Below are positions 56,422 through 56,656 of a stretch of 64,000 nucleotides of DNA, piece after piece. Location of the stretch: the NCBI GenBank assembly GCA_045634865.1, contig JAZRBB010000002.1, positions 197,162 through 261,161 of the forward strand, in the 5' to 3' direction. A program made the position numbers and the translations under genes. The notes beneath the pieces are model-generated. The model was not told where the DNA came from. It made no database searches and saw only the letters and a program-made list of their open reading frames with translations. This DNA comes from Candidatus Enterousia sp. GTDB lineage: Bacteria; Pseudomonadota; Alphaproteobacteria; Rs-D84. Positions within the stretch are counted from its first letter, which is position 1, and each line of letters opens with the position of its first letter.

Positions 56422-56640
56422 TTGATTTACAAAATGTTTTTGTTAAAATGACTGATGTCAGATGGTGTTCATCTGATAGGTGTAGATACCTGTATTGAGT
56501 AGCGTCTGTAATTGATTATTACAGATGAACAAGACTCCAACCAGAGGGTTGGAGGGTTGCGAATATGTTGAATAAGCACACAATTTCTACTCAAATTGTA
56601 TCTAACCTCCAACCGCCAAAATTTCGGCGGTTTTTTGGTG
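56422..56640 (+). promoter_or_regulatory. Promoter (TTGATT-16-TAAAAT) plus ~180-nt structured leader with mutually exclusive antiterminator/terminator pairing, directly upstream of the 857-aa repeat-protein gene
   Basis: ctccaacc appears at 56535-42 and 56607-14. Either copy can pair with ggttggag at 56547-54. The second copy overlaps the 5' strand of the terminator ccgccAAAATTTCggcgg+T6 at 56613-56636. The gene ATG is 22 nt downstream. Confidence 0.45.
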
Positions 56641-56656
56641 TGTAAGTGGGGGAATA

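Follow-up and report, generated by a model that had tools for sequence, protein, structure and literature searches.

The sRNA-Xcc1 of Xanthomonas, an 88-nt small RNA (sRNA; PMC2996969), is described as a trans-acting RNA of integron cassettes. Five tandem copies of it are present in a Xylella island (PMC12189769), and it has been reported upstream of symE or of a gene for an ORF6N-domain protein, in the same orientation as these (bioRxiv 10.1101/2025.06.18.660453; 10.1101/2020.03.17.996009). In the literature that we found, no switch has been described for sRNA-Xcc1. Another related kind of RNA are the leaders with competing terminator and antiterminator folds, riboswitches as well as antitermination leaders that depend on a protein or an RNA, in which a promoter-proximal domain with covarying pairs is followed by a terminator directly before the Shine-Dalgarno (SD) sequence and the open reading frame (ORF), and in which an alternative helix uses the 5' strand of this terminator. 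In classical attenuators four boxes are present, which pair as 1:2 and 3:4 or as 2:3. The c-di-GMP-I and c-di-GMP-II (cyclic di-GMP) riboswitches, of which a genome can carry several copies, act on genes for surface proteins, adhesins and regulators rather than on those of metabolism. Here, we compare with these RNAs a leader that lies on a 64-kb stretch of DNA from Candidatus Enterousia sp., called the window in the following, directly upstream of a gene for an 857-aa repeat protein; the leader region was read over positions 56000-57000.

The leader RNA (56455-56636) can adopt two mutually exclusive folds. Both folds are possible and conserved with compensatory changes over at least 55 related copies, and the layout of promoter, terminator, SD and ORF is conserved as well. 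It is probable that the leader is a conditional intrinsic terminator of the 857-aa gene, acting in cis and having two states. The parts of the leader and of the transcription unit, in window coordinates, are the following:

56422-56449, + strand: sigma-70-type promoter from a promoter scan, with TTGATT (56422-27), a 16-nt spacer and TAAAAT (56444-49)
56457-56477, + strand: P1, the 5'-terminal hairpin, GUCAGAUG / GUGUU / CAUCUGAU, from the minimum free energy (MFE) fold; 6/9 pairs changed on both sides in alignment A3
56478-56502, + strand: 5' strands of the long-range helix P2, namely AGG, P2a (56483-89) and P2b UUGAGUAG (56495-502), from the MFE fold
56503-56527, + strand: P3, an optional hairpin (inverted repeat I20), absent in short members of the family and doubled in long ones
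56535-56555, + strand: P4 hairpin, CUCCAACC (box 1) / AGAG / GGUUGGAGG (box 2, SD-like)
56558-56578, + strand: P5, a UGC/GCA stem with the conserved 15-nt loop GAAUAUGUUGAAUAA, common to both folds
56580-56599, + strand: P6 hairpin, in fold II only, ACAAUUU / AAAUUGU; its loop is the 3' strand of P2b, CUACUCAA (56587-94)
56598-56608, + strand: 3' strand of P2a and base of P2, GUAUCUAACCU, overlapping the start of box 3
56606-56614, + strand: box 3, CCUCCAACC (inverted repeat I15), 9/9 complementary to box 2
56611-56636, + strand: intrinsic terminator, AACCGCC / AAAAUUUC / GGCGGUU and U6
56647-56653, + strand: SD region UGGGGGA, complementary to CCUCCA of box 3 and box 1
56657-59230, + strand: gene for the 857-aa repeat protein, with a signal-peptide-like N-terminus

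The related copies were obtained in two ways. Metagenome contigs searched for the conserved core pattern GGGTTGCGAATATNTTGAATAAG gave 47 loci, several of them sharing one contig, and a covariance model found further copies whose core differs from this pattern. The model was built from short-type members only, and its match in the window starts at 56502. The 5' end of medium and long types is mis-assigned by it, and therefore the alignment A5 was left out of the pair counts.

The leader is strongly structured, as an earlier reading of the window from its letters alone (the sequence-only reading) had expected. The 186-nt RNA folds with -70.1 kcal/mol compared to -41.9 +/- 4.0 kcal/mol for 200 dinucleotide shuffles (z = -7.1), none of which was as good (0/200). 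Fold I, the terminator form, consists of P1, P2 with its G-rich base, P2a and P2b, the optional P3, P4, P5 and the terminator, and the same consensus was obtained from two sub-alignments that were folded separately, one with 13 medium-type sequences and one with 12 short-type members. For the 13 medium-type sequences, 95.1% of the cells are paired compared to 82.2% in shuffles, and 19 pairs are changed on both sides. None of 500 shuffles reaches the observed values, and with slid partner columns 35-48% are paired. Changes on both sides affect 6/10 pairs of P2a and 5/6 pairs of P2b. The hairpin P4 is present in 13/13 medium-type members, with a compensatory change in copy 2 of L030, and its 3' strand, box 2, is the one that switches partners. 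P5 is invariant in the copies selected by the pattern and covaries in those found by the covariance model (GUCGC/GCGGC, CCGU/ACGG, CAGC/GCUG, CGCG/CGCG), while its loop keeps the form GAAUA...AAUAA. Box 3 is part of the P2 base and of the start of the terminator stem in fold I. The terminator stem covaries, too (GCC/GGC, ACC/GGU, GUC/GAC, GCG/CGC), and throughout the family these stems are GC-rich, have 6-9 bp and are followed by a U-run.

Fold II, the antiterminator form, is a three-way junction with P5 and P6 that is closed by 9 bp between GGUUGGAGG and CCUCCAACC, that is between box 2 and box 3. The sequence-only reading had pointed out a hairpin CTCCAACC (56535-42) / AGAG / GGTTGGAG (56547-54) and a second CTCCAACC (56607-14) that overlaps the 5' strand of the intrinsic terminator AACCGCC (56611-17) / GGCGGTT (56626-32) with T6, ending at 56636, and had proposed both copies of CTCCAACC as possible partners of the central GGTTGGAG. 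All of these parts are present, and with both strands counted CTCCAACC occurs three times in the window, always inside 56535-56614, compared to about 0.85 expected occurrences. As to the proposed distal pairing, a box 2:box 3 helix of 9-11 bp is possible in 33/33 aligned members. Seven of these carry GUCAGGAGG as the 3' strand of P4, and in 7/7 the distal box is CCUCCUGAC or CCUCCUGGC (CCUCCUGRC). A second compensatory box change, a C-G/G-C event, is found in the array copy L047 8418-8593 (GGCUGGAG : CUCCAGCC). Thus, the antiterminator helix excludes the terminator, is conserved and shows compensatory change, as in an attenuating leader.

When the antiterminator is forced, the terminator is brought down to 3 bp, P6 forms, and a local hairpin, hairpin A, is predicted in which the AGG of the P2 base pairs with CCU (56490-92). 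In the aligned rows a proximal CCUC accompanies GAGG, and CCC accompanies GGG[A/U]. The cross-sequence control for P6 is weakly discriminating because the arms are similar across the copies, and the table of arms class by class is the better evidence, with CAAU-AUUG in 11/11, CUAU-AUAG, CUGU-ACAG in 2/2 and CUAC-GUAG in 2/2. The isolated middle segment folds as P5 and P6 in most copies. The long-range helix P2 is in competition with two local hairpins as well, so that the switch would involve the whole leader.

The layout around the leader is that of an intrinsic terminator between a promoter and an ORF which has no separate promoter. The promoter TTGATT-16-TAAAAT behind the terminator of the upstream gene secG had already been named by the sequence-only reading, and both are there. 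The -10 box of the leader promoter has a TG extension, (TGT)TAAAAT, and transcription is predicted from the sequence to start at about 56456-56457. A -10 box with at least 5/6 positions stands at a fixed distance from P1 in 36/41 family copies. The distance between the last T of the terminator (56636) and the ATG (56657) is 20 nt and not 22 nt as given before, and this gap is too small for another promoter, which agrees with the earlier view that a promoter of its own for the gene at this site is unlikely. The upstream features are:

ending at 56355, + strand: secG, identified as SecG by Pfam (PF03840, 6e-18)
56372-56403, + strand: intrinsic terminator of secG, a 14-bp stem and then a T-run

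As the secG terminator lies between, the leader promoter is insulated from upstream transcription. The motif ATTCTTTGATT is found just after the stop or the terminator of the upstream gene in three contexts (window 56417-56430, L001 ~7074-7084, L025 ~2703-2714), and in the window it provides the -35 box. The stretch from the -10 box to the 5' strand of P1 (56441-56465) resembles the first codons of the 857-aa gene (56658-56681), with TGTTAAAATGACTGATGTCAGAT compared to TGTTAAAACGATTGATG-CAGAT, and a like resemblance is seen in the orthologous L025 locus (2781-2805 and 3002-3025). This resemblance could be a duplication remnant or an extra pairing partner. In the public annotation the same protein (P0001, 852 aa) begins at the second ATG at 56672; the SD at 56647-53 fits the first ATG at 56657 rather than this start.

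Regarding the energies, fold I is favored by 0 to 21.5 kcal/mol in the full-length RNAs (13.9 kcal/mol in the window). At the decision point, before the 3' strand of the terminator exists, it is favored by a family median of 5.6 kcal/mol, with 12.1 kcal/mol in the window and less than 6 kcal/mol in most short types. With fold I as the more stable form, the leader is expected to be off by default. It is also linked to translation. In MFE folds of the full-length 5' regions, the partner of the SD is box 3 (in the window, L025, L038 and L045) or box 1, and the base before the SD tends to match the type of box 3: a U precedes the G-run of the SD in 15/24 genes behind CCUCCA-type leaders compared to 2/18 background genes (p = 0.0012), and CAGG is found in 4/9 genes behind CCUCCUG-type leaders compared to 1/24 (p = 0.013). 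By these models, the distal CCUCC box can mask the SD too. Both this pairing and the match of U or CA before the SD with CCUCCA or CCUCCUG would also be expected of a switch in translation only, for example an RNA thermometer or another form of SD masking, with the hairpin and U-run as a constitutively leaky terminator or as a stabilizing structure. The bacteria studied here are host-associated, and surface proteins are commonly under temperature control, which would fit such a switch. However, the terminators are canonical, with covarying GC-rich stems of 6-9 bp and a U-run, they would halt most transcripts before the SD is made, and the conserved P2-P5 junction exceeds what SD masking needs. 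Regulation at the level of translation alone is thus rather improbable.

For the reading as a conditional terminator, the following course of events can be proposed. Starting at ~56456 from its own promoter, the segment would be transcribed as the 5' leader of the 857-aa gene. By default, fold I would form, in which P2 closes a junction bearing P3, P4 and P5; box 3 would be left to the P2 base and the terminator stem, the polymerase would stop at 56636, and an RNA of ~180 nt would be released. In transcripts that read through, box 3 would pair with the SD (UGGGGG). In fold II the 3' strand of P4, GGUUGGAGG, would take box 3 into the 9-bp helix of the three-way junction with P5 and P6, the 5' part would refold locally, the terminator would keep 3 bp and the SD would be free, so that the gene would be transcribed and translated. 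In terms of the four boxes, the pairing 1:2 and 3:4 would thus be the off state and 2:3 the on state, as in the classical attenuators. We infer that this switching takes place in vivo and that some factor tips the balance to fold II. As factor stabilizing fold II, a small ligand, a protein or a second RNA would come into question, and most likely its target would be the conserved P5 loop or the three-way junction.

Several points weigh against this proposal. Start of transcription, termination and read-through of the window leader are deduced from the letters of the DNA. In the window the energies strongly favor fold I, and P4 is already in place by the time the polymerase reaches box 3, so that fold II would need considerable help. 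The covariation of box 2 with box 3 rests on about two independent events, because both boxes are nearly invariant. Moreover, hairpin A and P6 could coexist with P2 as pseudoknots and would then be no evidence of a second state, so that only the box 2:box 3 helix would mark it. From the downstream genes, which encode secreted proteins and XRE regulators, no metabolite suggests itself. Finally, there are tandem complete units, one of them with an extra terminator, which resemble stand-alone sRNA genes and to which we return below.

Another conceivable mechanism is leader-peptide (ribosome-mediated) attenuation, in which GGAGG of P4 would serve as SD for a short ORF starting at an AUG or UUG in the P5 loop, and the position of the ribosome would decide on the terminator. 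In the window GGAGG is indeed followed 9 nt on by an AUG (56566), and a 26-codon ORF runs from there through the terminator to a UAA at 56644. However, an AUG is present at this site in 3/42 copies only, the position of the stop varies between -16 and over +100 nt from box 3, subfamilies differ in frame owing to a 1-nt indel (GCAC vs GCAAC), and the region of the assumed peptide consists of covarying P2 and P6 strands. Control by an upstream ORF was rejected, as neither start nor frame nor stop is conserved, and we regard leader-peptide attenuation as very improbable.

By its outline only, a leader with CCUCC motifs and a terminator at its end, the element could also belong to a known class, such as T-box leaders, known riboswitches or the alphaproteobacterial anti-SD sRNAs (CCUCCUCCC 'cuckoo'/ar14 type). 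The sequence-only reading had left the choice between riboswitch, T-box and attenuator; the attenuator-like competition of terminator and antiterminator has held up, which neither T-box, the known riboswitch classes nor leader-peptide attenuation have. An Rfam scan had been suggested, and it gave no match to any Rfam 15 family at gathering score, neither for the window nor for six other loci that bear copies; inside the leader there is no plus-strand match even at E <= 10. The T-box was rejected as a candidate, since its Rfam model gives no match at gathering score or at E <= 10. The c-di-GMP-I and c-di-GMP-II riboswitches, whose Rfam models do not match the window leader either, are alike by gene context alone. 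That the leader belongs to one of these known classes is accordingly hardly conceivable.

The sole recurrent weak match is sRNA-Xcc1 (RF02221), which is the best Rfam match of four family copies with 30.6, 31.2, 30.4 and 26.2 bits (E 7e-4 to 0.09), always over the core of fold II and in the same register. None of them reaches the gathering score of 53 bits, and therefore the copies cannot be assigned to sRNA-Xcc1; the window leader itself does not match RF02221 even at E <= 10. Nevertheless, the architecture of RF02221, a 9-bp closing helix with two hairpins and a short 3' linker, is that of fold II. The Rfam model has a 9-bp outer helix (GGYYGGRGG / CCYCCRRCC), a first hairpin with the loop AAUA...UAA, a second hairpin and a linker of 6-7 nt, all as in fold II. 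As in this family, tandem arrays are known of sRNA-Xcc1 (PMC12189769), which moreover has been reported in accessory DNA ahead of small genes of the same orientation (10.1101/2025.06.18.660453; 10.1101/2020.03.17.996009). In contrast to the 88-nt RNA of Xanthomonas, the predicted RNA of the order Rs-D84, to which Ca. Enterousia belongs, has ~180 nt. The family is thus twice as long and has an extra 5' domain (P1, P2, P3 and the 5' strand of P4) and a canonical terminator, which together provide the competing fold. A blastn search of phages and plasmids with the 3' half of the sRNA-Xcc1 consensus, which is not a real sequence, gave nothing. Judged by sequence and predicted structure, the two RNAs may be related.

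Other copies had been proposed to be worth a search by the sequence-only reading. None was found within the window, where blastn detected neither a second leader nor a paralogue of the 857-aa gene and the next-best match of the covariance model has 14.7 bits (E = 0.39), but at least 55 related copies are present in metagenomes of the order Rs-D84, from relatives of Ca. Enterousia. In nearly all of them the RNA has a -10 box upstream whose distance is fixed, and is followed by a terminator with covarying stem, a strong SD and an ORF on the same strand. In about 38 of the 47 loci of the scan this ORF starts 55-91 nt after the core. The ORFs encode either small XRE-type helix-turn-helix proteins (PF01381, PF13560) or proteins with a signal-peptide-like N-terminus and without Pfam family, many of them Cys-rich, which we regard as secreted, Cys-rich or repeat proteins. 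The genes behind generic switch leaders are, in contrast, enzymes and transporters, and the Rs-D84 units further differ from those leaders in that each has its own promoter, they can stand in tandem, and both folds are elaborately structured. Two contigs of IMG/VR that are classed as viral carry the leader ahead of a gene for a 316-aa secreted protein (L074 12111-12133, L075 859-881), and nearby ORFs resemble, by reading of their sequences, lysozyme, DNA methyltransferase and PLD-type nuclease.

In L030 (154-1004, four units), L045 (8686-9110, two units) and L047 (7982-8593, two units), complete promoter-RNA-terminator units are arranged in tandem with one small gene behind them. In L030 an extra terminator follows unit 1, and L047 7982-8120 is a short unit without the 5' domain that comprises only the sRNA-Xcc1-like core. 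These arrays, whose units all possess a -10 box and a terminator of their own, are what one would expect of a stand-alone, trans-acting sRNA of a sibling family related to sRNA-Xcc1, whose CCUCC boxes or P5 loop would act as seeds on other mRNAs or would titrate a protein, and with the downstream gene read only by leaky read-through or not linked functionally. The extra terminator after L030 unit 1 and the recurrent sub-threshold RF02221 matches are in line with this, and so is the ~180-nt terminated RNA that is predicted as the default product of the window element. The sequence-only reading had likewise considered an independent sRNA ending at 56636, and because of the tandem units we keep it as a rival. 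However, only 20-35 nt separate the last unit of every array, and nearly every single copy, from a co-oriented ORF that has a strong SD, which leaves no room for a promoter. Furthermore, an sRNA needs neither the conserved alternative helices (P6, hairpin A and box 2:box 3) nor an SD context that is matched to box 3, its CCUCC boxes would be paired and not exposed in fold I, and sRNA-Xcc1 itself has been found in front of co-oriented genes. A stand-alone sRNA is therefore unlikely in our view, but it is the main rival. The ~180-nt terminated RNA may also act in trans in addition to a conditional terminator in cis, with which such a role is compatible.

The neighborhood of the leader differs between relatives. 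The order Rs-D84 is an uncultured, genome-reduced gut lineage with genomes mostly below 1 Mb (PMC12306168). The RNase III encoded beside secG has relatives in metagenome-assembled genomes of uncultured gut Alphaproteobacteria, Ca. Enterousia among them. In 17 related genomes, neither nhmmer nor blastn found the leader behind secG. The closest relative, L001 (UBA1218), with 93% nucleotide identity, lacks the window region ~56371-59437 and runs from secG straight into sequence matching the window after 59437 (compared over L001 7069-7111). Since all of them are missing from L001, the leader, the 857-aa gene and a GC-rich element together represent an insertion or deletion of ~3.1 kb between close relatives. 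This GC-rich, strongly structured segment (59241-59420) lies just past the 857-aa gene in an otherwise AT-rich genome, has -80.9 kcal/mol for 200 nt and gives no Rfam match at gathering score. Parts of it recur beside homologous genes, on both sides in L020 (3775-3837 and 6877-6978) and also in L026, L019 and L032, and the segment may mark the boundaries of gene cassettes.

The 857-aa protein has no Pfam match and 896 homologues, mostly in gut Alphaproteobacteria; when looked up as exact proteins, none of SecG, the 857-aa protein, P0001 and P0016 had a record. Its orthologue P0006 in L025, with 55% identity, sits after the gene for ribosomal protein L25 and has the same leader, in which the conserved blocks are identical, the helix sequences differ and the independently predicted fold is the same as in the window. 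The contexts of the homologues P0002-P0005 have short 5' regions without leader. Directly before homologues of the 857-aa gene in L019 (4035-4092) and L026 (2903-2960) there are deletion derivatives of the leader, in which the 5' half of P1 runs directly into what is left of the terminator, its decayed 3' half, which suggests that the switch has been lost repeatedly.

Our literature search on RNA motifs in Rs-D84 or Enterousia found nothing relevant, and this family of leader RNAs has apparently not been described before. Among the literature found, it would be the first regulatory RNA described for the order. The evidence supports the reading of the leader as terminator/antiterminator and hence as a new family within a known kind of regulator. 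It is only tentatively that we go further and consider a new class of ON switch, either an orphan riboswitch or a factor-dependent antiterminator with an sRNA-Xcc1-like three-way junction as sensing core; in uncultured gut Alphaproteobacteria, whose genomes are smaller than 1 Mb, it would control a set of XRE regulators together with the secreted and surface proteome. If that were true, the widespread integron- and phage-borne sRNA-Xcc1 elements would be cores of cis-acting switches instead of, or besides, trans-acting sRNAs. For the sRNA-Xcc1 family, which is found in integrons, phages and genomic islands, this suggests a new interpretation that can be tested. With both folds mapped, the leader is a well-defined orphan switch for the search of its effector. 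The family probably switches genes for surface proteins and regulators on and off, and its apparent targets, secreted, Cys-rich and repeat surface proteins and small XRE regulators, are the likeliest genes for contact of these bacteria with their host or partner.
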